In this document: piece by piece, positions 1-45,887 of the stretch
Layout of the letters: every line of letters begins with the position of its first letter
How positions within the stretch are numbered: position 1 is the stretch's first letter
Origin: a virus
Taxonomy: Duplodnaviria; Heunggongvirae; Uroviricota; Caudoviricetes
Virus record (IMG/VR): IMGVR_UViG_3300010275_000216
Length of the DNA: 46,051 nt
Direction: 5' to 3' (one strand)
The notes under the pieces: model-generated
What the model was told of the DNA's origin: nothing
What the model saw: only the letters and a program-made list of their open reading frames with translations
Database searches by the model: none
Position numbers and translations under genes: made by a program

Positions 1-121
1 CCACATAACCTGCACCATAGGTTCCCATTGCCAGAATTAACGCCATTGCCGTTGATGATTCAGGAAAAAATATTTCATGAAACACTAACGCTGCGCCGAG
101 CGAATATAACTGGAAGTCCAT
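1..121 (-). CDS. 5' end of a leftward gene truncated by the window edge; hydrophobic N-terminus (MDFQLYSLGAALVFHEIFFPESS...), probably a host-side membrane protein
   Basis: ATG at about 119-121 on minus strand with in-frame stop two codons upstream; reading frame runs off position 1; not in ORF track because incomplete. Confidence 0.3.
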   Translation of the reverse strand, partial: MDFQLYSLGAALVFHEIFFPESSTAMALILAMGTYGAGYV

Positions 122-724
122 AATTCACAGGTGTTTTTTCCCATCCTGTGGTTTCCTTGGCGTTTTCTAGGTTTTTTCAGATAGTTGCATTTTTTAAAAA
201 GCATCCTAAGTTCGATCTCAGTGTCTATCTGGGGCCTATTTCTGTCCCATATATGCCCCAAAAAGACTCCCCAACAGATAAGTAGTTTTTTCATGGATTT
301 ACGCGTAAAATCAATAACGGCTGGAAATCATTCAATACTCGCACTATCGAAAAATTTACCAGCCAACCGCAGCACGTTCTTGCATAAGGCGTGTCTGCGG
401 TTTTTCAACTATTCAGATACATCACTCCCATCACATTCATTCCTCCGCATCAAAGGCATATAGGCTATATCACCTTGATATTTTTCTTCTTCAGATAAAA
501 ACTGTTATCTATGTATACTTTTAAACCCAATCCGTGTAGAGTCTCTGCATAAGATAGTTTGCAGTTGCCACTTCAGCTTGCGCCATAAACCGCCTGATTT
601 TTGCCGCCACCTGTTAGCATTCCTGTATACCTGAAACGACAATGTTTATCTACGAACTTTAAGAACACCCAGGATAAAAATTGTCAACTATATCATATAT
701 AACACATTACTAATTCGAGGCTAT

Positions 725-838
725 ATGAACAGCATACTGATAATCACTTCGCTCCTTATCATATTCAGCATTTTTAGTCATGCTCTAATAAAATTAGGGA
801 TTGGCATATCCAATAACCCAGACAAAACCGATGTATAA
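725..838 (+). CDS. small hydrophobic 37-aa ORF ([37 protein letters not shown])
   Basis: ATG preceded by GAGG about 6 nt upstream; single predicted transmembrane helix; below ORF-track size cutoff. Confidence 0.25.
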
Positions 839-906
839 GTCAACATATCCTGAATCAGACATACAATATCGCAATGAAAATCAATAATATTTTAAGGAAT
901 ATCTTC

Positions 907-1140
907 ATGAAATCAAAAGACACCCTAAAGTGGTTCCCTGCGCAGCTTCCTGAAGTAAGAATTATCCTAGGGGATGCTGTAGTGGAAGTAGCAAAACAGG
1001 GAAGACCTATCAATACCAGAACATTGCTTGATTACATTGAAGGAAACATAAAGAAAAAGTCATGGCTGGATAACAAAGAATTATTACAAACAGCGATATC
1101 AGTTCTTAAAGACAACAAAAATTTAAATGGTAAAATGTAA
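907..1140 (+). CDS. ydfK: YdfK/YnaE-like prophage cold-shock-associated protein (77 aa from internal ATG)
   Basis: ATG at 907 with AAGGA 9 nt upstream; 77-aa product and position next to pin match the ydfK/ynaE arrangement of Qin/Rac as I recall it. Confidence 0.5.
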   Translation: MKSKDTLKWFPAQLPEVRIILGDAVVEVAKQGRPINTRTLLDYIEGNIKKKSWLDNKELLQTAISVLKDNKNLNGKM

Positions 1141-1458
1141 TATAATAAACTTACTTTTTTATCATTTTTCCACTTTAACAACATTTTGCTCCACTTTTCC
1201 ACGACCAAACAACTTGAAATCTGGTTAAAATAACACGCAACACTATTCTTCTTCCTTGAGTCCGCCCGGAACTCGAAAAACAAACCGAGTTAAGGCCATT
1301 TTTCACAAAATCGATTTTGGATCTCACCAAAATTACGTGGTTGCATACGCATTCGTTTATTTTCGAACGTGTACATACAAATATGTACAAAAATAATCAA
1401 AATTATTTTCTGAGATGCATTATGATATGTACACCAATTTCGTATAGAAGATCTCACT

Positions 1459-2049
1459 ATGTCTCGAATTTATGCTTACTGTCGGGTATCAACTCTGGAA
1501 CAAACAACCAAAAATCAACGTCGGGAAATCGAAAGTGCAGGTTTTAACATCAAATCTCAGCAAATAATTGAAGAACAAATTAGCGGCTCAGCAGCAACCA
1601 GTGAGCGTCCTGGTTTTAACCAGTTGCTTGATCGACTGAAAAGAGGTGATGCATTGATTGTCACAAAACTGGATCGCCTCGGTTGTAATCCAATGGATAT
1701 CAGTAAAACGGTGGAACAACTGACCAAAGCAGGTATCAAAGTGCATTGCTTAGCATTGGGGGGCGTTGACCTGACCAGTCCACCTGGAAAAATGATGATG
1801 CAAGTAATTTCAGCAGTCGCTGAATTTGAGCGAGACCTTTTACTTGAGCGTACTCATTCAGGGATATTAAGAGCACGGGGCGCAGGAAAGCGATTTGGTC
1901 GCCCACCTGTGTTAAATGATGAACAAATACAGAGGGTACTAGAGCAAATTAAGTCAGGTATAAATATAAGTGACATTGCCCAAGAATTCAAAACCTCGCG
2001 GCAAACCATTTTAAGAGCTAAAGCAAAAAATCAGACACCTGATATATAA
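1459..2049 (+). CDS. pin: serine recombinase, DNA invertase (Pin/Hin/Gin family, 196 aa)
   Basis: N-terminal [11 protein letters not shown] catalytic-serine motif, resolvase core, C-terminal HTH; 196 aa as PinQ/PinR; convergent with tfa. Confidence 0.85.
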
Positions 2050-2147
2050 AAATAATCTCGGTGTGAGATTCCTTACGTTTTCCAAGCCCCCCCTTCCTAG
2101 CCTTAAATGGAAAGATACTTCTAATTATAGAATTTATATATCTTACC

Positions 2148-2723
2148 CTACGGTAGGGCTGGCCATTCAATATCCGGTGCAGTTGATGTATCAACACGGT
2201 TCAGCAACACCCGATACTTTTTCCAGGCTTCCAGCAACAAGGTTTCTTTCTCCGTTGCGATCTCCAGATCCACAGCATCCTGAAGCGGCGCTATATGCTC
2301 ACTGGCTACCTGCATCAGGCTGTTTTTTGTTTCTTCCGCCTCCCGGATCCGGAACAGTTTTTCTGCTTCCGTATCCTTCACCCAGGCTGTGCCGTTCCAC
2401 TTCTGAAACTCCCCTTCCGGGGATAACCAGGTGACATTTTCCGGTAATGAGCCGAGTTCAGAAATAAATAACGCGTCGCCGGAAGCCACGTCATAGACCG
2501 TTTTTCCCCGATGGTCTTCAACGAGATGCCACGATGCCTCATCACTGTTGAAAACAGCCACAAAGCCAGCCGGAATATCTGGCGGTGCAATATCGGTACT
2601 GTTTGCAGGCAGACCTGTATGAGGCGGAATATATGCGTCACCTTCACCAATAAATTCATTAGTTCCGGCCAGCAGGTTATAAATTTTTATGGTCCGTGCT
2701 TGTTCACTCATTCTGAATGCCAT
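2148..2723 (-). CDS. tfa: tail fibre assembly protein Tfa
   Basis: N-terminus [38 protein letters not shown] matches my recollection of lambda Tfa along most of its length; start overlaps stf stop. Confidence 0.9.
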
Positions 2724-5674
2724 TATGCGAGCCTCACAATATAGTTAAATGCGATGTTTTTGACGGTGTTTTCCGCGTTACCAGCAGCGTTAACGGTGAT
2801 GGTGTGTCCATGTGAACCAATCGCAACAGAGTGCGTATGAGCACCAATACCGACAGTATGCGCGTGTGCACCCGCAGATGCTGCTGTGCCGGACAGTGAG
2901 TGTGTATGGTTTCCTTCTGAAGATGATTTACCTACCCATTGGGAGGTGCCACTGGTTAATGAGCCACTGATACCAACCTGATTAGTCCCGCTAACTTGAG
3001 TACTCCCTGCCGGAAACATTCCAGTAGGTTGACTCCCGCTATTCGTTCTGGGCCCAGTCTGACTATGTTGGTGGGCCCCAGCTGAACTTGTAGAGCCGCT
3101 CAGACTGTGCGTATGCGCCCCGGTGTTATTCGTGGATTTAGTGCCGTAATCAAACGACGATGTGGTTTTCGTCCCCAAATCCGTACTGGATGCGCTGGCG
3201 CTGTGGGTGTGCGATTTTATGCCGTCCTGTTCCTGAGACAATACGGCCCGACCACTGGCAGGTTTGCCCTTAATCGTCCAGCCACGCATATCAGGGATCA
3301 CGCCTGACGGATAAGCGGCTGCAAGTTTCGGGTATGCAGATTTGTCAAAAGTCTGCCCCTGCATCAGGGCATAACCAGACGGAACGGTATCTGATGGCCA
3401 CGGGATTGGTGCACCGACTGGATAAAACTCTGCAGGAGGATGAGCCGAGGTGTAAAGCTGCGCCCACGGCGACCAGTTTGCGTCGATCGTATCCCGTCGT
3501 GAACGAATAAATGCCGGAGCATGAGCACCGCTTGTACCACTCCAGCCGATGAGTAACTCACCTTCGCCAACGGCTGTCATCCCTTTCAGGTGAATGATAT
3601 TTCCATACGCTGTTGGATATCCGTTGTTATACACCTCGTATAACTCAAGACCTGTTGCCCCCTGCGTATTGTCTGTCAGCGCGGTTACCCGACCTTTTGA
3701 AGCCAGATTAACTGATGATACTGCTGTTCCACCTGACGGTAATGCCCCGATCTCTGATGCCGTTGGCTTATTTCTGGAGTTATAGTCCCTTCGCCAGCCA
3801 GGTGAATAATCTGTTCCGTGATTAATATAGGTAAACTGGGCGTTAGTTGTTCCGCCACCAGTGGAGGTGGTCGGTGTGGTAATGCGGATCGTCATCGCTG
3901 ACTTTATCCCCATTACTTCAATGACGGCTCCTGCGAGATGAATATTACCGCAGCCAGTATCAGTAATGATTTTATTATTGCCATAAGACCAGGAACCCTT
4001 GCACATCCAGTATGGATGGTTAAATGCTCCCTGAGAATCCAGCCACTCGATAAACTGTGCAGTCGTCCAGTTTCCTGTTGTTGTGCTTACTGACCCACCG
4101 AAGGCACGGCAGGCACCAATATTTTTCGTAAAGGTGTCTTTGCCAGGGATATCCGCACCGTTCTGATCTTTCTGCAGACGTTTCTCAGCATTGTCATTGG
4201 CTGCTTTTACTGCCTTTGGCGTTGCCGCCAGCGTTTCAGACGTGCTGTTGGTCGCACTGCTGAGCTGTACTATCCCCTTTTTCGTCGTGCTCGCATCCTC
4301 AAGCGCCACGGCGGATGCAATATCCTCTGCCCGTTTTGCTGCTGTCTCGGCGCGCGTTGCCGCGGATTCCGCCGTACTTTTGCTCTGAGCTGCCGCCGTC
4401 GCACTACCAGCTGCCTCTGTCGCCTTCGTGGATGCCGTCGTGGCGCTGCCTTTCGCTGCTGATGCCTGTCTGGTCGCCTCATCTTTTGAAGCAGACGCAG
4501 ATGATGCCGATGACGCCGCCGAACTGGCGGACGATGCAGCTGCCGTTTTTGAGGATTCTGCACTGGTTTCCGACGCTTTCGCGTTCGTTTCGGATGTCTT
4601 CGCTGCGGATGCAGACCTCGCTGCTGCGCTGGCCTGTTCAGCGGCTTCGCCAGCCTTCGTTGTGGCTGTTGAAGCAGACGATGCGGCACTTTCTGCCGAT
4701 TTTCCGGCGGCAGTGGCTCTGGCTGAGGCCTGCCCGGCACTTGTTGACGCGGCACTGGCAGATGATGCAGCCGCTGTTTTTGAGCCTGCCGCAGCTGAGG
4801 CACTCTGTCCCGCTGCCGTTTCAGAAGACCTGGCGTTCGTCTCGGACGTTTTTGCCGCCTTCGCGGAATTTGCTGCCGCCGTTGCCGAGGAAGCGGAACT
4901 ACTGGCGCTCGAGGATGCGTTCGTTTCTGATGATTTCGCTGCCTCTTTTGAGGCCGCCGCATCCCGGGCTGAGGTGGCAGCTTCTGACGCTTTCGTAGTC
5001 GCGGTGGATGCAGAAGTGGCTGCTGATTGTTGTGACGCTGCGGCATTCGTTTCTGACGTTTTCGCCGCACCGGCACTGGTAGCCGCCGCGCTTTTTGAGG
5101 ACTCTGCAGCGGCAGCACTTTTTTCCGCTTCAGTGGCCTTTGTTGATGCCGTTCCTGCGCTGGAGGACGCTGACTGAGCCGACGAAGCGGCCTGTCCGGC
5201 TGACGTGCTGGCTGCGCGTGCTGAGCCTGCAGCATCAGTCGCATGGGTTGCCGCCTCACTGGCAGATGTGCCGGCATCGCCGGCTGACTTCTTCGCGGCT
5301 GCCGTGTTCTGTGCCACCGCGGACGCGTTACGCGCCACCTCTTCCACCATCAGTTCAAAACGGCGCAGAGCCTCCGGACGGGCATCATCCTCCGTCATGG
5401 CACCGAGAAAATCATTCAGCGTACCGGGTCGGGAATCTTCATACACGGTGATAGTCCCGGCATGTGACGGCGGGAATCCCTCCACCAACAGAATAACGCT
5501 GTACTGACCGTACTCAACGTCCATGCTGTAACGCCCGGCTTCATCCGGATTTTCTGAGGCCAGCGTGTTCACCACCACCGTGTTGCTGTTACGTTTTGCT
5601 TTCAGCTGGATTGTGCAGTTCTGTACCGGTTTTCCTGTGCCGTCTTTCAGTACACCTGAAATCTTTACTGCCAT
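2723..5674 (-). CDS. stf: side tail fibre protein Stf with expanded Ala/Ser-rich central repeats and lambda-like C-terminal receptor-binding region
   Basis: N-terminus [26 protein letters not shown] and C-terminus ...[18 protein letters not shown] as in lambda Stf; ORF-track start at 5680 is GTG, ATG at 5674 preferred; 983 aa versus about 774 in lambda. Confidence 0.9.
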
Positions 5675-5690
5675 ATTCACCCCACAAAAA

Positions 5691-5712
5691 AGCCCGCCTG
5701 AACCGGCGGGCT
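5691..5712 (-). terminator. rho-independent terminator downstream of lom (GC stem AGCCCGCC/GGCGGGCT followed by T6 on minus strand)
   Basis: Inverted repeat with run of A on plus strand immediately 5' of it, about 30 nt after lom stop and 17 nt before stf start. Confidence 0.55.
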
Positions 5713-5738
5713 GTCATAACACTGTGTTACCTGGCTAA

Positions 5739-6338
5739 TCAGAATTTATAACCAACACCAACGATGAACCCGTCAGTGCGCCAGTCGCCACTGCCGGAGC
5801 CTTCATAAGCGACATCAACGGCCACGGATTCGGTCGGGTTAAACTGCACGCCAGCTCCCCACGCCAGAGAGGTGTTACTGTGGCGAGCGTCATCACTTCC
5901 GGTCAGCACATCATGCGTTTTCCCCTTGTTGTCAGTTACGCGGAGATAATCCCCGGAGAAAGTCGACACACGGCTGTAAGCCACACCCGCCATCGCATAC
6001 GCGCTGAACCATTCATTCACGCGCACAGACGGCCCCGCCATCACGCTGAACCAGCGGTTACGAACGGAATCTTCATGCCAGCGGGTATCGCTGTAACGGG
6101 TAAGCTGGCGATTCTTGTCTCCTGCATAGCTGAATGACGTCACCATCCCCAGTGTGTCCGTAAACTCATAACGGTATTTCACGTTAATCCCGTTCAGATC
6201 ATCGCTGCCGGGAACGTTCGTCGAGACATGAAGATACCCCGCGCTCAGCGTGGACTGATGTTCAGACGCCCATGCAGGCGCACCGGATACGGCCAGACAA
6301 ATGGCTGCGGACAAAATGGCTGCATAAAGTTTACGCAT
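5739..6338 (-). CDS. lom: outer membrane protein Lom (Ail/Lom family) with signal peptide
   Basis: Signal peptide [24 protein letters not shown], beta-barrel-like alternation, C-terminal F; lambda position J-lom-stf. Confidence 0.9.
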
Positions 6339-6368
6339 AATTACCTCTCGCTTTTCTGCAATAAAAAA

Positions 6369-6386
6369 GGCGTCATTTCTGACGCC
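6369..6386 (-). terminator. rho-independent terminator between J and lom (GGCGTCA-GAAA-TGACGCC plus T-run on minus strand)
   Basis: Perfect 7-bp stem with 4-nt loop followed by TTTTTTATT on minus strand; lies between J stop (6405) and lom start (6338). Confidence 0.6.
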
Positions 6387-6404
6387 CGTTCTGGGTTATA
6401 AAAT

Positions 6405-9806
<3,402 letters not shown>

Positions 9807-26296: not shown

Positions 26297-26319
26297 AAAA
26301 CCCCGTAAAAACGGGGTTT
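26297..26319. terminator. bidirectional terminator hairpin AAAACCCCG-TAAAAA-CGGGGTTT between convergent ydfO-like and gnsB-like genes
   Basis: Perfect GC stem flanked by A-run and T-run. Confidence 0.55.
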
Positions 26320-26985: not shown

Positions 26986-27192
26986 CTTCATTTTCACTTT
27001 TTTAAATCCAACGACAGACGGCTGGCATTTAAGTATTGTGAAATATTATCAAATGTAATCATCATTGATTTACAAAAGATACATTTTGCCCCGAAAGGAT
27101 TCATGTCAGAAACATCAAAAGATGATGTTCTATACTGGGAACCATGACAACACGGGCATCTAAAGTGAATATGGTTTGTAATATTGTCTACC

Positions 27193-27405
27193 TCAAAGCG
27201 CCACTACATGAACAGCGGCAGGACCTTTAGGTCCGTTCTCAATACCAAATTCAACTTCCTGATTCTCAGTTAATGTTTTGAAATCGTTGCTCTGAATTGC
27301 TGAGAAATGGACAAACACATCTTTGCTGCCATCTTTCGGCGTGATGAAACCAAAACCTTTTTCAGGGTTAAACCATTTCACTAAACCAGTCATTTTGTTA
27401 GACAT
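27193..27405 (-). CDS. cspI: cold shock protein, CspA family (70 aa), CspI-like
   Basis: [23 protein letters not shown]...[12 protein letters not shown] motifs; long upstream leader as in cold-shock genes. Confidence 0.8.
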
Positions 27406-27765
27406 AATTATTACCTTTTGAAGAAATTAGCCCTTGGGCAGAATGGTCCGAAAAAAAATATCAGAGAGAAAAACCAACAAGGAAATCCCAAGAGGTACAA
27501 ATAATAAAATTATAACAATGACTGCTTCAGATAAATTTGTAACAAACCAGAACACCATTAACGCATGATTAACCACCCATAGCAAGGATTACTTTTGTAA
27601 AGAAAAATACAGCAATGAAAGAATAGCTTTATTTATTAATAAAACGTGTCATTCTGATTAAGACCTTTTCTTACCCTTAAGATTTCAGGAATTTTGGCTC
27701 ATGGAAGAGTCCTTTTTATTTAAATTTTACATTCCGCGATGTAAATGTTCCGATTTAATATTACC

Positions 27766-29791: not shown

Positions 29792-30074
29792 TTGAGATTG
29801 TGGTGCTTTTTGTGGGAGTCATCCACTTACGCACTTTGTTTTGCGATGCCAGCAGTTAGCTTCTGCTGTGAAACTATTCATGCAGCAAACCTGCACTTCA
29901 CCACAATGGTTAGCATACTTTTCCTGATTAAGATTTTGCCAAATATGCTGGCCATTGTTTCATGTATTGGACCTCCTTACTTTTTATTAAAGAGATCCAA
30001 TATTCACTACTCTGTCCGTATCTCTACTCAGGCATCAGCCTTCTTCGTTATCGTATACAGACGAGCGATGAATT

Positions 30075-30290
30075 TTAATCAGTAATGATGACATTTACTG
30101 CTGCAGGACCTTTAGCACCACTCTCTATAGAGAAGGTAACCTTTTGACCTTCAAATAAGGTTCGATAATTATCATTCTGAATCGCAGAAAAATGCACAAA
30201 CACATCTTTACTACCATCAACAGGAGAAATAAAGCCGAAACCTTTATCAGCGTTAAACCATTTTACTAAACCAGTCATTTTATTTGACAT
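30075..30290 (-). CDS. cspB: cold shock protein CspB-like (71 aa)
   Basis: [23 protein letters not shown]...; divergent from cspF as in Qin. Confidence 0.8.
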
Positions 30291-30590
30291 TCTACATTCC
30301 TTAACTTGAGCCTTTCGGCATAAATGGTTTGCATAACAGAAACGACTTCGTACTTAATTGGAGAGACTCAAAGAAGGAATAAGTGAATAACACCTGAAAT
30401 GAGAACTGCTTTAGTAAACTACTTCGTATATCGTCTGTTCTTCAAACCGACGCAATCATTAACGCATAGTTGAACATATGAAGCAATGTTTATTTTAGAC
30501 ATCCAGCCATCTTCAACCCCATCAAAAAACTATAGCTTTCTTCAGGAACGTGTGTATAGTGCGCCAAGTTATCAGTATTAAGGAATTTTT

Positions 30591-35548: not shown

Positions 35549-35704
35549 TTACTCCTCAGGTTCGTAAGCTGTGAAGACAGCGACCTCCGTCTGGCCGGTT
35601 CGGATTCGTACCTCGCAGAGGTCTTTCCTCGTTACCAGTGCCGTCACTATGACGGTTAAACAAATGACGATCAGGGCGATTAACATCGCCTTTTGCTGCT
35701 TCAT
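35549..35704 (-). CDS. hokD: Hok-family type I toxin (51 aa), HokD/RelF-like
   Basis: MKQQKAMLIALIVICLTVIVTALVTRKDLCEVRIRTGQTEVAVFTAYEPEE; AGGAG SD. Confidence 0.85.
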   Translation of the reverse strand: MKQQKAMLIALIVICLTVIVTALVTRKDLCEVRIRTGQTEVAVFTAYEPEE

Positions 35705-35900
35705 AGCCTGCTTCTCCTTGCCTTTCGGCACGTAAGAGGCTAACCTACATGTGTCTAGCATGAAATTGGCCTCAGATTAATGTTAAGCGTCTTGCAGGAC
35801 GCGTAATGTTAACTGGGGCTTTTCTCTATCTGCCGTTGGTGTTCATGCCCGAGGCAGATAGCCTCAAGCACCCGCAGCCATTCTACTTAACTACCGTTAC
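35705..35900. promoter_or_regulatory. hok leader region: in-frame 19-codon upstream extension (mok-like) and candidate antisense Sok-type RNA on plus strand
   Basis: ORF-track 70-aa form starts at ATG 35761; plus-strand promoter-like TTGCCT-17-TAACCT at about 35717-35745 oriented antisense to hok; inference only. Confidence 0.3.
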
Positions 35901-41079: not shown

Positions 41080-41137
41080 TTTCTGGTGACGTTTGGCGGT
41101 ATCAGTTTTACTCCGTGACTGCTCTGCCGCCGTTTTT
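41080..41137 (+). ncRNA. dicF: DicF small RNA (ftsZ-targeting sRNA of the dicB operon) with terminator U-tract
   Basis: TTTCTGGTGACGTTTGGCGGTATCAGTTTTACTCCGTGACTGCTCTGCCGCCGTTTTT matches the DicF sequence as I recall it over 52 of 53 nt; correct operon position between ydfBC and dicB. Confidence 0.8.
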
Positions 41138-44572: not shown

Positions 44573-44606
44573 CTAAAAGCCACACTAACTAATGAGAGAA
44601 GTTGAA

Positions 44607-45887
44607 ATGAAATATCCGACAGGCGTGGAAAACCATGGAGGGAAATTACGTATCTGGTTTGTTTATAAAGGCGTAAGAGTCAGGGAAAATCTGGGGGTTC
44701 CTGACACAGCAAAAAACAGGCGCGTTGCAGGTGAACTACGCTCCTCTGTTTGTTACGCAATAAAAACTGGTGTTTTCGACTATGCAAAACAGTTTCCCTC
44801 CTCACGCAATCTGGAAAAATTTGGTGAGGCCCGACAAGATTTAACCATAAAAGAACTGGCTGAAAAATTTCTGGCACTGAAAGAAACTGAAGTCGCCAAA
44901 ACATCACTCAACACATACCGTGCCGTCATCAAAAATATCCTGAGCATAATCGGTGAAAAAAATCTTGCCTCATCGATTAATAAAGAAAAATTACTGGAGG
45001 TTCGTAAAGAGCTACTGACTGGATACCAGATCCCCAAAAGTAACTATATTGTTACACAACCAGGGAGATCGGCTGTAACTGTAAATAATTACATGACAAA
45101 TCTTAACGCCGTGTTCCAGTTTGGTGTTGATAACGGTTACCTGCCAGATAATCCGTTTAAGGGGATCTCGCCATTAAAGGAATCAAGAACCATTCCGGAT
45201 CCTCTTTCGCGGGAGGAATTTATCCGTCTTATCGATGCGTGCAGAAATCAGCAAGCAAAAAATTTATGGTGTGTTTCTGTTTATACTGGCGTTCGCCCTG
45301 GTGAGCTGTGTGCACTTGGATGGGAGGACATAGATCTGAAAAATGGAACAATGATGATCAGGAGAAATTTAGCAAAAGACCGTTTCACGGTACCAAAAAC
45401 ACAGGCGGGAACCAATCGGGTCATTCATCTTATTAAGCCAGCAATCGACGCTCTCCGGAGTCAGATGACATTAACGAGACTGAGCAAAGAGCATATCATT
45501 GATGTTCACCTCAGAGAGTATGGCAGAACAGAAAAACAAAAATGCACCTTTGTTTTTCAACCTGAAGTGTCAGCGAGAGTAAAAAATTATGGTGACCATT
45601 TTACCGTTGACTCAATAAGGCAGATGTGGGACGCAGCGATAAAACGTGCCGGACTCCGCCATCGAAAATCATATCAGTCGAGACATACTTATGCCTGCTG
45701 GTCGCTGACAGCTGGTGCTAACCCGGCATTTATAGCAAACCAGATGGGCCATGCAGATGCGCAAATGGTATTTCAGGTATACGGAAAATGGATGTCTGAA
45801 AACAATAATGCACAGGTAGCTTTGTTAAATACACAGTTAAGCGAGTTTGCCCCAACCATGCCCCATAACGAAGCAATGAAAAATTAA
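44607..45887 (+). CDS. int: tyrosine recombinase / phage integrase
   Basis: C-terminal catalytic region with R...HxxR...Y (SRHTYACW, GHAD...VYGKW); ATG 44607 with GAGAGAAG SD; outermost gene, transcribed toward window end. Confidence 0.85.
   Translation: MKYPTGVENHGGKLRIWFVYKGVRVRENLGVPDTAKNRRVAGELRSSVCYAIKTGVFDYAKQFPSSRNLEKFGEARQDLTIKELAEKFLALKETEVAKTSLNTYRAVIKNILSIIGEKNLASSINKEKLLEVRKELLTGYQIPKSNYIVTQPGRSAVTVNNYMTNLNAVFQFGVDNGYLPDNPFKGISPLKESRTIPDPLSREEFIRLIDACRNQQAKNLWCVSVYTGVRPGELCALGWEDIDLKNGTMMIRRNLAKDRFTVPKTQAGTNRVIHLIKPAIDALRSQMTLTRLSKEHIIDVHLREYGRTEKQKCTFVFQPEVSARVKNYGDHFTVDSIRQMWDAAIKRAGLRHRKSYQSRHTYACWSLTAGANPAFIANQMGHADAQMVFQVYGKWMSENNNAQVALLNTQLSEFAPTMPHNEAMKN

Follow-up and report, generated by a model that had tools for sequence, protein, structure and literature searches.

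The stf locus described here raises the question of whether the long repetitive stretch at the centre of a side tail fibre gene is a labile DNA repeat or a structural element of the fibre. The window, by which we mean the whole 46,051-nt stretch of viral DNA that was analysed (IMG/VR record IMGVR_UViG_3300010275_000216), had been the subject of a sequence-only reading, in which the centre of stf appeared as an expanded repeat array whose copy number could modulate fibre length and which would be prone to assembly error.

This stf is a side tail fibre gene of the standard lambda type from an E. coli prophage, ordinary and already known, with the PF08400 domain, gene position, heptad shaft and gp37-like C-terminus of that type. 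The identification as a side tail fibre, already made from the sequence, is borne out by the PF08400 N-terminus, the Collar domain, the gp37-like C-terminus and the neighbouring genes, tfa downstream and lom and J upstream (Table 1). Pfam finds PF08400 (E=3e-71) and PF07484 (E=7e-12) in the product. The order J-lom-stf-tfa, all on the minus strand, agrees with lambda and Rac; lom lies directly upstream of stf, as in lambda, and the start of tfa overlaps the stf stop. In the near-identical genome CP051698, RefSeq places the stf start at the same ATG and gives the same CDS limits; the GTG at 5680 is no more than a mechanical extension of the ORF. The prophage is lambdoid and is located at the Qin (ydfJ) site.

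Table 1. Features of the stf region in the window (aa numbers refer to Stf)
Feature	Position	Strand	Basis
Pin-type serine invertase, convergent with tfa	1459..2049	+	Pfam Resolvase and HTH_7
tfa, tail fibre assembly chaperone, 191 aa	2148..2723	-	Pfam PF02413, E=3.6e-44
stf CDS, side tail fibre, 983 aa	2723..5674	-	ATG at 5674, stop codon 2723-2725
T4 gp37-type C-terminal region, aa 750-983	2726..3427	-	PDB 2xgf, E=9.4e-82
Hypervariable tip segment, aa 861-925	2900..3094	-	Module conservation among relatives
Middle module, aa 653-749, fold without assignment	3428..3718	-	PHROG phrog_22609, phrog_37852 (tail-fibre families)
Mu gpS-like domain, aa 495-652	3719..4192	-	8ju3_A residues 178-335, stretch E=2e-68
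Junction box, conserved, aa 458-494	4193..4303	-	Common to Mu gpS-type fibres
49 in-phase heptads, aa 115-457, putative proximal coiled-coil shaft	4304..5332	-	Autocorrelation, heptad stack, PSSM scan
15-heptad block absent from lambda Stf, aa 304-408, 105 aa	4451..4765	-	Global alignment
Sole DNA-level tandem repeat, 9 nt x 2.8, aa ~386-394	4494..4518	-	TRF
N-terminal collar domain, aa 1-94	5393..5674	-	phmmer to PDB 9e7m/9mgh (lambda tail fibre protein), E=5.7e-51
lom, Ail/Lom outer-membrane protein	5739..6338	-	Pfam PF06316, E=3e-120
J, central tail fibre / host specificity protein, 1132 aa	6405..9803	-	ORF; gpJ annotated in CP051698
Alternative-frame ORF, 335 aa	4270-5277	-	ORF list
Alternative-frame ORF, 227 aa	4315-4998	+	ORF list
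Alternative-frame ORF, 249 aa	4428-5177	+	ORF list

Periodicity is pronounced at the protein level. When the residue autocorrelation of Stf was compared with 500 shuffles, every lag divisible by 7 stood out (z = 7-10) and no others did. A PSSM scan returns one single in-phase run, that listed in Table 1, which is collinear with the arrays of lambda and StfR. Stacking its 49 uninterrupted copies yields the consensus heptad [T/S]-S-A-[T/S]-x-A-[A/x], with A at position 6 in 46/49, A at position 3 in 34/49 and S at position 2 in 36/49. The stretch that had been placed at 4270-5280 is indeed periodic, but its unit is the 7-aa heptad and its limits are those of the array in Table 1; the 12-letter motif cited for it is one recurring heptad pair, found at irregular spacings (42, 28 and 84 aa). 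Ala, Ser and Thr together make up 70-78% of the residues in this central part. Its high GC content, also noted from the sequence, is confirmed (0.60-0.64, against ~0.46-0.55 in the flanks). The heptad array has a GC of 0.62 and the remainder of stf 0.517. Since GC3 is equal inside and outside the array (0.51 and 0.50), the excess is attributable to the Ala (GCN) codons.

In the DNA, by contrast, the array is barely repetitive. TRF, run on positions 2000-7000, detected no tandem repeat on the scale of the array, within which exact repeats do not exceed 12 nt. The heptad period does show in the DNA as an identity at lag 21 above that of codon shuffles (0.455 against 0.377 +/- 0.013); the best 6-heptad block within the array reaches an identity of 0.60. 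A self dot-plot had been proposed as a check on periodicity; the periodicity is there in the protein, but an ordinary dot-plot of the DNA would look almost empty. No strong diagonal was seen when the array was searched for higher-order repeats in a heptad-by-heptad matrix, and on this ground we rejected the idea that the extra 15 heptads were recently copied from those next to them.

We consider it very unlikely that the array arose by recent expansion of an unstable tandem repeat, with slippage or unequal recombination readily altering its copy number and so tuning fibre length in the manner of a contingency locus. Heptad counts do differ across the family (roughly 14, 30-35, 40 and 47-49), lambda and the window are separated by a clean in-phase indel of 15 heptads, and one relative (L035) has lost 3 aa precisely at the 9-nt microrepeat. 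However, the repeats are too dissimilar for slippage or unequal crossing-over, the low best multi-heptad DNA identity argues against any recent duplication, and 80 distinct array DNAs, 90.6-100% identical to that of the window, are every one exactly 1029 nt long. The periodicity of the array is kept by structural selection at the protein level, not by recent DNA expansion.

Length statistics were obtained from stf loci fetched from IMG/VR and genomes; the relatives were picked by N-terminal similarity, so that family-wide frequencies are biased to close relatives. Within this set, comparing repeat numbers as the sequence-only reading had advised, 69 of the 80 unique relatives having both flanking anchors share the array length of the window, and 48-49 heptads are called in 75/105 relatives by heptad scan. 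The difference from the window is 0, 105 or 112 aa, all multiples of 7, in 76 of the 80 anchored relatives; exceptional indels include +4 and -3, each equivalent to 4 mod 7 and of stutter type. Array lengths form a few discrete classes and no continuum. Of 5426 complete E. coli genomes, 3686 carry the 15-heptad block. We conclude that the 49-heptad array is the standard, stable, majority length in E. coli lambdoid prophages and that lambda is a short variant. The label "expanded" does not hold for what is the majority form, present also in K-12 Rac StfR and bearing no sign of recent duplication. As to the proposed modulation of fibre length, array length is a plausible determinant, heptad counts ranging from roughly 14 to 49 in the family, but the number is not labile. 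A scan of genome contigs added little taxonomic breadth, many of the non-enteric matches being lambda control-DNA contamination.

A more speculative proposal, which we regard as unlikely, is that shaft length is a selected, quantised "ruler" matched to the reach needed by the receptor-binding tip. Most of the family belongs to one of two discrete in-phase classes, 49 and 34 heptads, apart by exactly 15 heptads (a predicted ~15.6 nm), and within each class the length stays constant although nucleotide sequences diverge by 5-10% and distal modules are freely exchanged. The reach might be needed, for example, beyond the central J fibre or across O-antigen or capsule layers of differing thickness.

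Very probably, the stf gene of the window encodes a homotrimeric lambda-type fibre with a coiled-coil heptad shaft of standard, stable length. As in a coiled coil, the 7-residue periodicity is unbroken and the a and d positions are conserved, with Ala in the core positions rather than large hydrophobic Leu, Ile or Val. An Ala/Ala core is atypical of trimeric coiled coils and, to our knowledge, no atomic structure of this Ala-core shaft exists; that the Ala-core heptad defines a separate type of trimeric coiled coil, thinner than usual, is a further speculative and unlikely proposal. A single-sequence AF2 monomer (pTM 0.27, mean pLDDT 75.7) is ~95% helix across aa 98-478, with helices assigned by DSSP to model residues 4-160, 169-294 and 304-384 of 386. 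The single chain folds back upon itself as three long helices, as expected because one chain of a trimeric coiled coil was modelled alone. With moderate confidence, the array is predicted to be helical.

Published work on lambda gives this model its frame. Lambda Stf is listed among long coiled-coil proteins (PMC1322226) and is divided into collar (1-91), linker (92-101), proximal coiled coil (102-393), hinge, distal coiled coil and receptor-binding domain, twelve gpStfN copies making the collar at the gpV/gpM junction (PMC12617516). In Ur-lambda, Stf is a trimer on the virion and allows faster adsorption via an outer-membrane receptor; the fibre appears in tomograms as a rod with a defined hinge and was modelled as a coiled coil, the published model past the deposited chain being AlphaFold3 fitted to tomograms (PMC12617516). 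The deposited lambda Stf chain spans aa 1-94 only. For the window protein, trimeric coiled-coil geometry, physical length and receptor role are suggested by the Ur-lambda cryo-EM/ET work together with T4 gp37, and the Ala-core packing and oligomer state of the shaft by the lambda study alone.

That the Ala/Ser/Thr-rich stretch is instead an intrinsically disordered low-complexity linker seems scarcely credible. Its composition, the Ala in place of Leu/Ile/Val in the core and the singling out of StfR as a low-complexity outlier (PMC12695832) would all suit disorder, yet a disordered segment would have no reason to retain a strict 7-residue phase across 343 aa. The indels are overwhelmingly multiples of 7, with stutter-type changes among the exceptions, the AF2 helix is continuous, and the Ur-lambda fibre is rod-like in tomograms.

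In the coiled-coil fibre that we favour, the collar domain would fasten the fibre to the tail, and the proximal shaft, aa 115-457, would have a core of small residues, with Ala at a and d and flanking Ser/Ala. At ~0.15 nm per residue the array would span ~51 nm, ~15.6 nm beyond the 34-heptad array of lambda. Past the junction box would come an exchangeable Mu gpS-like domain, the unassigned module, a gp37-type collar, the HxH needle and the tip, and the adjacent Tfa chaperone would fold this distal part.

It is extremely improbable that the extra length arose as an assembly artefact, by mis-joining or collapse, whether between the stf copies of co-resident prophages or inside the repeats. Complete E. 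coli genomes do carry 1-14 copies of Stf N-terminal DNA, and thousands of "partial" Stf fragments ending 113-235 aa in occur in public short-read assemblies; when protein databases were searched with the first 134 aa, the 120 matches listed were nearly all fragments of 113-235 aa, mostly labelled partial, and uninformative on length. Against this, eleven complete genomes contain the tfa-stf-lom stretch (4301 nt) as one piece that is 99.1-99.7% identical, the stf frame is uninterrupted, and full-length homologues exist for each of its modules. The length is not an artefact of assembly, because an independent complete genome, CP051698, carries a 983-aa Stf identical to the window protein at 981/983 positions; with internal exact repeats of 12 nt at most, the predicted proneness to assembly error is unlikely.

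There is virtually no chance that the long alternative-frame ORFs in the array, open in most relatives though they are, represent overlapping genes, a reading rejected on codon-position variation: the variable sites of the 80 arrays are concentrated at stf third positions (73/70/226 at the first, second and third), synonymous codon differences from the window exceed non-synonymous ones (2839 against 1179), and the scarcity of stops in other frames would reflect GCN/TCN/ACN codon composition.

Outside the array, the PF08400 match covers aa 1-134 and the whole profile length (E=3.1e-71). Phage Mu tail fibre protein S matches aa 441-524 (PDB 5yvq, E=1.6e-17; 8ju3, E=4e-17), and the junction box is found at an identity of at least 70% in 99/113 relatives. 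It is the boundary between the conserved proximal part and exchangeable distal modules. Only 29 of the 113 have the Mu gpS-like module, and the middle module, present in 25/113, co-occurs with it. The C-terminal region comprises a collar domain (Pfam Collar, aa 754-801), a needle with seven HxH motifs and a receptor-binding tip; its last module, aa 926-983, is matched over at least 80% of its length in 80/113 relatives. The tip segment is at least 90% identical in only two of the 113, against 68-111 for the other shared modules, and diverges from both lambda and T4 gp37. From this pattern of divergence, it is likely to be the receptor-contact region.

A fibre switched by an invertase, as in the Mu G, P1 C and e14 P segments, was rejected at this locus, where crossover sites and inverted repeats were not detected. 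No AAACCNNGGTTT-type crossover site occurs near 600-6000, the sole match in the window, at 26308, being within chance expectation, and no cix/gix-like sites or convincing inverted-repeat pair were found around the Pin-type invertase locus. A single tfa gene lies between stf and pin.

As a discovery the locus carries little weight: the gene, its modular make-up and the heptad shaft are those of the well-known lambdoid side tail fibre. For annotation, the stretch should be read as a coiled-coil shaft, neither a low-complexity artefact nor an unstable repeat, and alternative-frame ORFs inside it as compositional shadows. For host range it is the distal modules and the tip that are informative; the array is not. 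The discrete 34- and 49-heptad classes are a small curiosity for those who engineer lambda Stf chimeras.

Compared with the 774-aa lambda Stf, the window protein is 209 aa longer. The sequence-only reading had put the excess at about 200 aa with conserved termini; both termini do align (aa 1-303 and aa ~750-983), but half of the difference is a module swap. The array accounts for only 105 of the extra residues, and there global alignment opens one clean gap of exactly 15 heptads (34 in lambda, 49 in the window) with only ~5-6 nt of microhomology at its junction; the rest is a replaced middle module. Past the junction box lambda continues with a hinge, followed by a distal coiled coil of six chains, whereas the window has the Mu gpS-like domain, to which lambda does not align, and a further module. 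The two proteins share the collar domain, heptad type and phase from aa 115, the junction box, the gp37-like C-terminus, the Tfa partner and the location after J and lom. OmpC specificity cannot be assumed for the window Stf, because its tip differs from that of lambda and the C-terminal repeats show small indels.

The Mu fibre gene is switched by inversion of the G segment by Gin, whereas the Pin-type invertase of the window is without detectable inversion sites. Mu S matches the window Stf at aa 441-524 and 495-652 (stretch E 4e-17 and 2e-68) and is without the lambda-type collar domain and the long heptad shaft. In T4, the whole crystallised fragment of the gp37 tip (PDB 2xgf) aligns with aa 750-983, sharing the collar motif, the HxH motifs and an 11-residue C-terminal ending; the head/tip sequence is unrelated to aa ~868-925 and the remainder of gp37 is not homologous.

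StfR of the E. coli K-12 Rac prophage (NP_415890.2, 1120 aa) was compared using the MG1655 sequence, a first K-12-like match having been set aside as IS2-disrupted. StfR has ~137 more residues between junction box and collar, not alignable to the Mu gpS-like module of the window, and a different tip segment, and the window prophage occupies the Qin (ydfJ) site instead of that of Rac. The two loci nevertheless share the order stf-tfa-pin-ynaE/ydfK, with TfaR identical at 181/191 and PinR at 167/196 positions. The StfR N-terminal domain is identical to that of the window at 112/114 positions, the two proteins have the same junction box and share 84-96% of residues in their gp37-like C-terminal parts, and the array, likewise of 49 heptads and equal in length, is identical at 330/343 positions.

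The repeat in Stf is a heptad repeat of the protein, not a tandem repeat of the DNA. Ala, Ser and Thr together account for 48-78% of residues over aa 101-450, and for 70-78% from aa 151 on. Autocorrelation of aa 115-455 gave a clear peak at each multiple of 7 (identity 0.37-0.45; z = 7-10, with 500 shuffles as control), every other lag being equal to or under expectation. Stacking in sevens yielded 49 consecutive heptads in one phase, with the consensus [T/S]-S-A-[T/S]-x-A-[A/x]; position 6 is Ala in 46 of the 49, position 3 is Ala in 34 and position 2 is Ser in 36. The sequence-only reading, which placed the repeat stretch at 4270-5280, came close to the measured limits (see table). The motif AAKTSETNA that it proposed does recur, but represents only one heptad pair, whose copies are spaced by 42, 28 and 84 aa.

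Features of stf, its product and the surrounding prophage
Feature	Position (nt)	Stf residues	Strand	Remarks
Pin-type serine invertase	1459-2049		+	beyond tfa
ydfK/ynaE-like ORF				beyond tfa, with the invertase
tfa	2148-2723			Caudo_TAP tail fibre assembly gene; downstream, overlapping stf stop
Rfam IS009 (RF02111) match	2182-2380		-	218 bits, full model length
stf	2723-5674	1-983	-	single long ORF
Hypervariable tip	2900-3094	861-925	-	between HxH repeats
Heptad array	4304-5332	115-457
Block missing in lambda	4451-4765	304-408
TRF tract	4494-4518			9 nt x 2.8
Shadow ORF	4270-5277		-
Shadow ORF	4315-4998		+
Shadow ORF	4428-5177		+
lom	5739-6338			upstream of stf
J	6405-9803			upstream of stf
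cspA-type 5' thermoregulator leader	27166-27551		-
cspA-type 5' thermoregulator leader	30028-30451		-
sok antitoxin RNA	35699-35873		-
DicF sRNA	41081-41132		+
Integrase	44592-45887
Lambda Stf collar match		1-94		9e7m/9mgh; E 5.7e-51
Mu tail fibre protein S match		441-524		5yvq/8ju3; E 1.6e-17 / 4e-17
Mu tail fibre protein S match		495-652		8ju3; stretch E 2e-68
T4 gp37 receptor-binding tip fragment match		750-983		2xgf; E 9.4e-82

The array had been described as a GC-rich repetitive stretch. Its GC content is indeed raised and the heptads are evident in the protein, but the DNA is hardly repeated: the tract in the table is the sole TRF repeat, repeat families do not exceed 46 nt (61-88% identical, spaced mostly by multiples of 21 nt) and the longest exact repeat within the 1029-nt array is 12 nt. 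At lag 21, DNA identity reaches 0.455, compared with 0.377 +/- 0.013 in codon-shuffled controls, and no higher-order diagonal was found in a heptad-by-heptad matrix, where the best 6-heptad DNA identity is 0.60. The GC excess (0.62 versus 0.517 in the remainder of stf) is a matter of composition, since GC3 is alike in the array and elsewhere in the gene (0.51 and 0.50). Variable sites in 80 distinct array DNAs fall 73/70/226 on the three stf codon positions, which indicates purifying selection in the stf frame. The same distribution argues against taking as genes the shadow ORFs of 227-335 aa that occupy three other frames of the array; these were rejected as compositional shadows.

Full-length lambda Stf (KT232076, 774 aa) is 209 aa shorter than the window protein, in agreement with an earlier estimate of about 200 aa, but just half of this excess lies in the array. 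The two proteins are colinear over window aa 1-303 and again from aa 409; between these, lambda lacks 105 aa (exactly 15 heptads) in a single clean gap, whose junction has only ~5-6 nt of microhomology. Past the conserved box ...[26 protein letters not shown], no alignment is obtained until window aa ~750 (lambda aa 536). About half of the excess thus consists of extra heptads; about half is due to a middle module that is different and longer, with small deletions in the C-terminal repeats offsetting it. The termini are conserved, as had been stated, lambda aligning over aa 1-303 and from ~aa 750.

Relatives were fetched by N-terminal similarity (80 + 80 IMG/VR loci and 37 genome loci), giving 105 unique full-length Stf proteins. 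When repeat number was compared across these related prophages by heptad scan, 62 had 49 heptads, 13 had 48 and 20 had 33-34; ten in all had 14, 30, 32, 35, 40, 47 or 12+39. Spacing between fixed flanking anchors, measured in 80 unique proteins, was identical to that of the window in 69, shorter by 105 aa (lambda type) in six and by 112 aa in one. The change was not a multiple of 7 in four IMG/VR loci (+4, -3, +9 and -220 in L006, L035, L076 and L134). The +4 indel is a TSAS duplication and the -3 indel a loss of SSA, exactly in a 9-nt microrepeat matching the TRF tract; both are stutter-equivalent coiled-coil discontinuities. The eighty distinct array DNAs share 90.6-100% identity with the window, and every one is exactly 1029 nt long. 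Among 5426 complete E. coli genomes, DNA of the N-terminal domain occurs in 4845 (15,232 places) and the 15-heptad block missing in lambda in 3686 (5471 places). K-12 MG1655 carries the 49-heptad array too, in its Rac StfR (1120 aa), with 330 of 343 residues identical to the window; the N-terminus is also nearly identical (112/114). From the length counts, the frequency of the block and the StfR array, the window's allele is the standard long one, and lambda's the short one. The array had been called expanded; its length is in fact the commonest, with no visible recent expansion. Repeat number does vary over the family, as had been suggested, but the array itself is stable. A much more regular array was seen at aa ~125-350 of Stf from two fetched loci, L103 (Escherichia ruysiae) and L105 (Escherichia sp.); multi-heptad duplications (type [29 protein letters not shown]...) stand out clearly in it, and the distal domain that follows is a different one, lacking the [14 protein letters not shown] junction box.

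The array had also been thought prone to assembly error. Such an error is unlikely, since eleven complete genomes each match the 4301-nt tfa-stf-lom stretch as a single piece (99.1-99.7%), and the 983-aa Stf of CP051698 is identical to the window protein at 981 of 983 residues. The closest proteins among the database matches listed (P0001-P0120) are nearly all fragments of 113-235 aa, most of them 'partial', and clusters among them comprise as many as 3747 members. It is just inside the array, near its start, that short-read contigs systematically stop. These breaks are likely due to co-resident prophage copies sharing the conserved 5' part of stf, present in 1-14 copies per E. coli genome, and not to repeats within the array. 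Among the genome_contigs matches, lambda stf was also found in assemblies labelled as other bacteria (L085-L092, L094-L102 and others; Leeuwenhoekiella, Pseudomonas, Shewanella, Desulfosporosinus, Oceanobacillus, Kitasatospora and others). The contigs are ~48.5 kb or fragments, at ~1x coverage, and L085, the one locus translated, encodes the frameshifted 401-aa PaPa form. Their presence in these public genomes is almost certainly contamination by lambda control DNA.

In a mechanical ORF list, stf is extended as far as a GTG (5680); RefSeq annotates the start, in a near-identical genome, at the ATG of 5674, which gives a protein beginning with MAVKISG. Its identity as a side tail fibre is confirmed by two Pfam domains, PF08400 (prophage tail fibre N-terminal; aa 1-134, E=3e-71) and the phage tail Collar (aa 754-801), and by neighbours that are those of lambda stf. 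E. coli SCU-152 (CP051698) has this block in a prophage that splits ydfJ, the Qin site. The remainder of the window, which also encodes antiterminator Q, terminase, a protease-capsid fusion and tape measure protein, fits a complete Qin-type lambdoid prophage; DicF, sok and the cspA-type leaders, typical Qin-prophage cargo, likewise indicate a full-length one. The invertase, convergent with tfa and identical to K-12 PinR at 167 of 196 residues, is an orphan, like PinQ and PinR: a search for a cix/gix-like crossover site or inverted-repeat pair found none, and its locus has one tfa/stf C-terminus set only. The IS009 match falls wholly within tfa; what is catalogued as an 'sRNA' family may thus be no more than conserved coding sequence of that gene.

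Modules of the fibre were assigned by sequence search of solved structures (see table). PHROG matches are to tail-fibre families without exception, and the gp37-like region has seven HxH motifs. Nearly all of 113 full-length relatives have the N-terminal domain, array and junction box; the Mu gpS-like module and the next one occur in ~25-29, and the collar and C-terminal end in ~80. The tip segment, at least 90% identical in only two of the 113, is the one truly hypervariable segment of the fibre, and the receptor is therefore probably not lambda's OmpC. This distribution of modules places the variable, host-range-relevant parts distally, and the array within the conserved proximal part.

In Ur-lambda, as described by Wang et al. 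2025 (PMC12617516), the collar domain of Stf (aa 1-91) is present in twelve copies around the gpV/gpM junction. It is joined by a flexible linker (92-101) to a proximal coiled coil (102-393), beyond which come the hinge, distal coiled coil and OmpC-contacting receptor-binding domain. Each virion has four such fibres, all trimeric, extending past the central fibre. A 2005 listing of long coiled-coil proteins already included lambda Stf (PMC1322226). An AF2 single-chain model of aa 95-480 is ~95% helix (mean pLDDT 75.7) and folds back as three long helices, with breaks where pLDDT is low; folding of this kind is the artefact to be expected from modelling a single chain of a trimer. We infer that the 49 heptads form a rod-like proximal shaft, to which the 15 extra heptads would add ~15.6 nm relative to lambda, at ~0.15 nm per residue. 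Trimeric coiled coils do not usually have an Ala/Ala core like that of this array; its packing in the shaft is predicted geometry, the deposited lambda chain ending at aa 94. The array lengths fall mainly into discrete 34- and 49-heptad classes.

Altogether, the observation is real but is better described as a heptad coiled-coil shaft than as a DNA repeat array. The sequence-only reading was right about the side tail fibre, about an array longer than lambda's (by 15 heptads, as measured) and about length variation in the family; the array is no unusual expansion, nor is it unstable or an assembly hazard. Every part matches known families. The array is present in the K-12 reference genome, and the proximal coiled coil of Ur-lambda is collinear with it.
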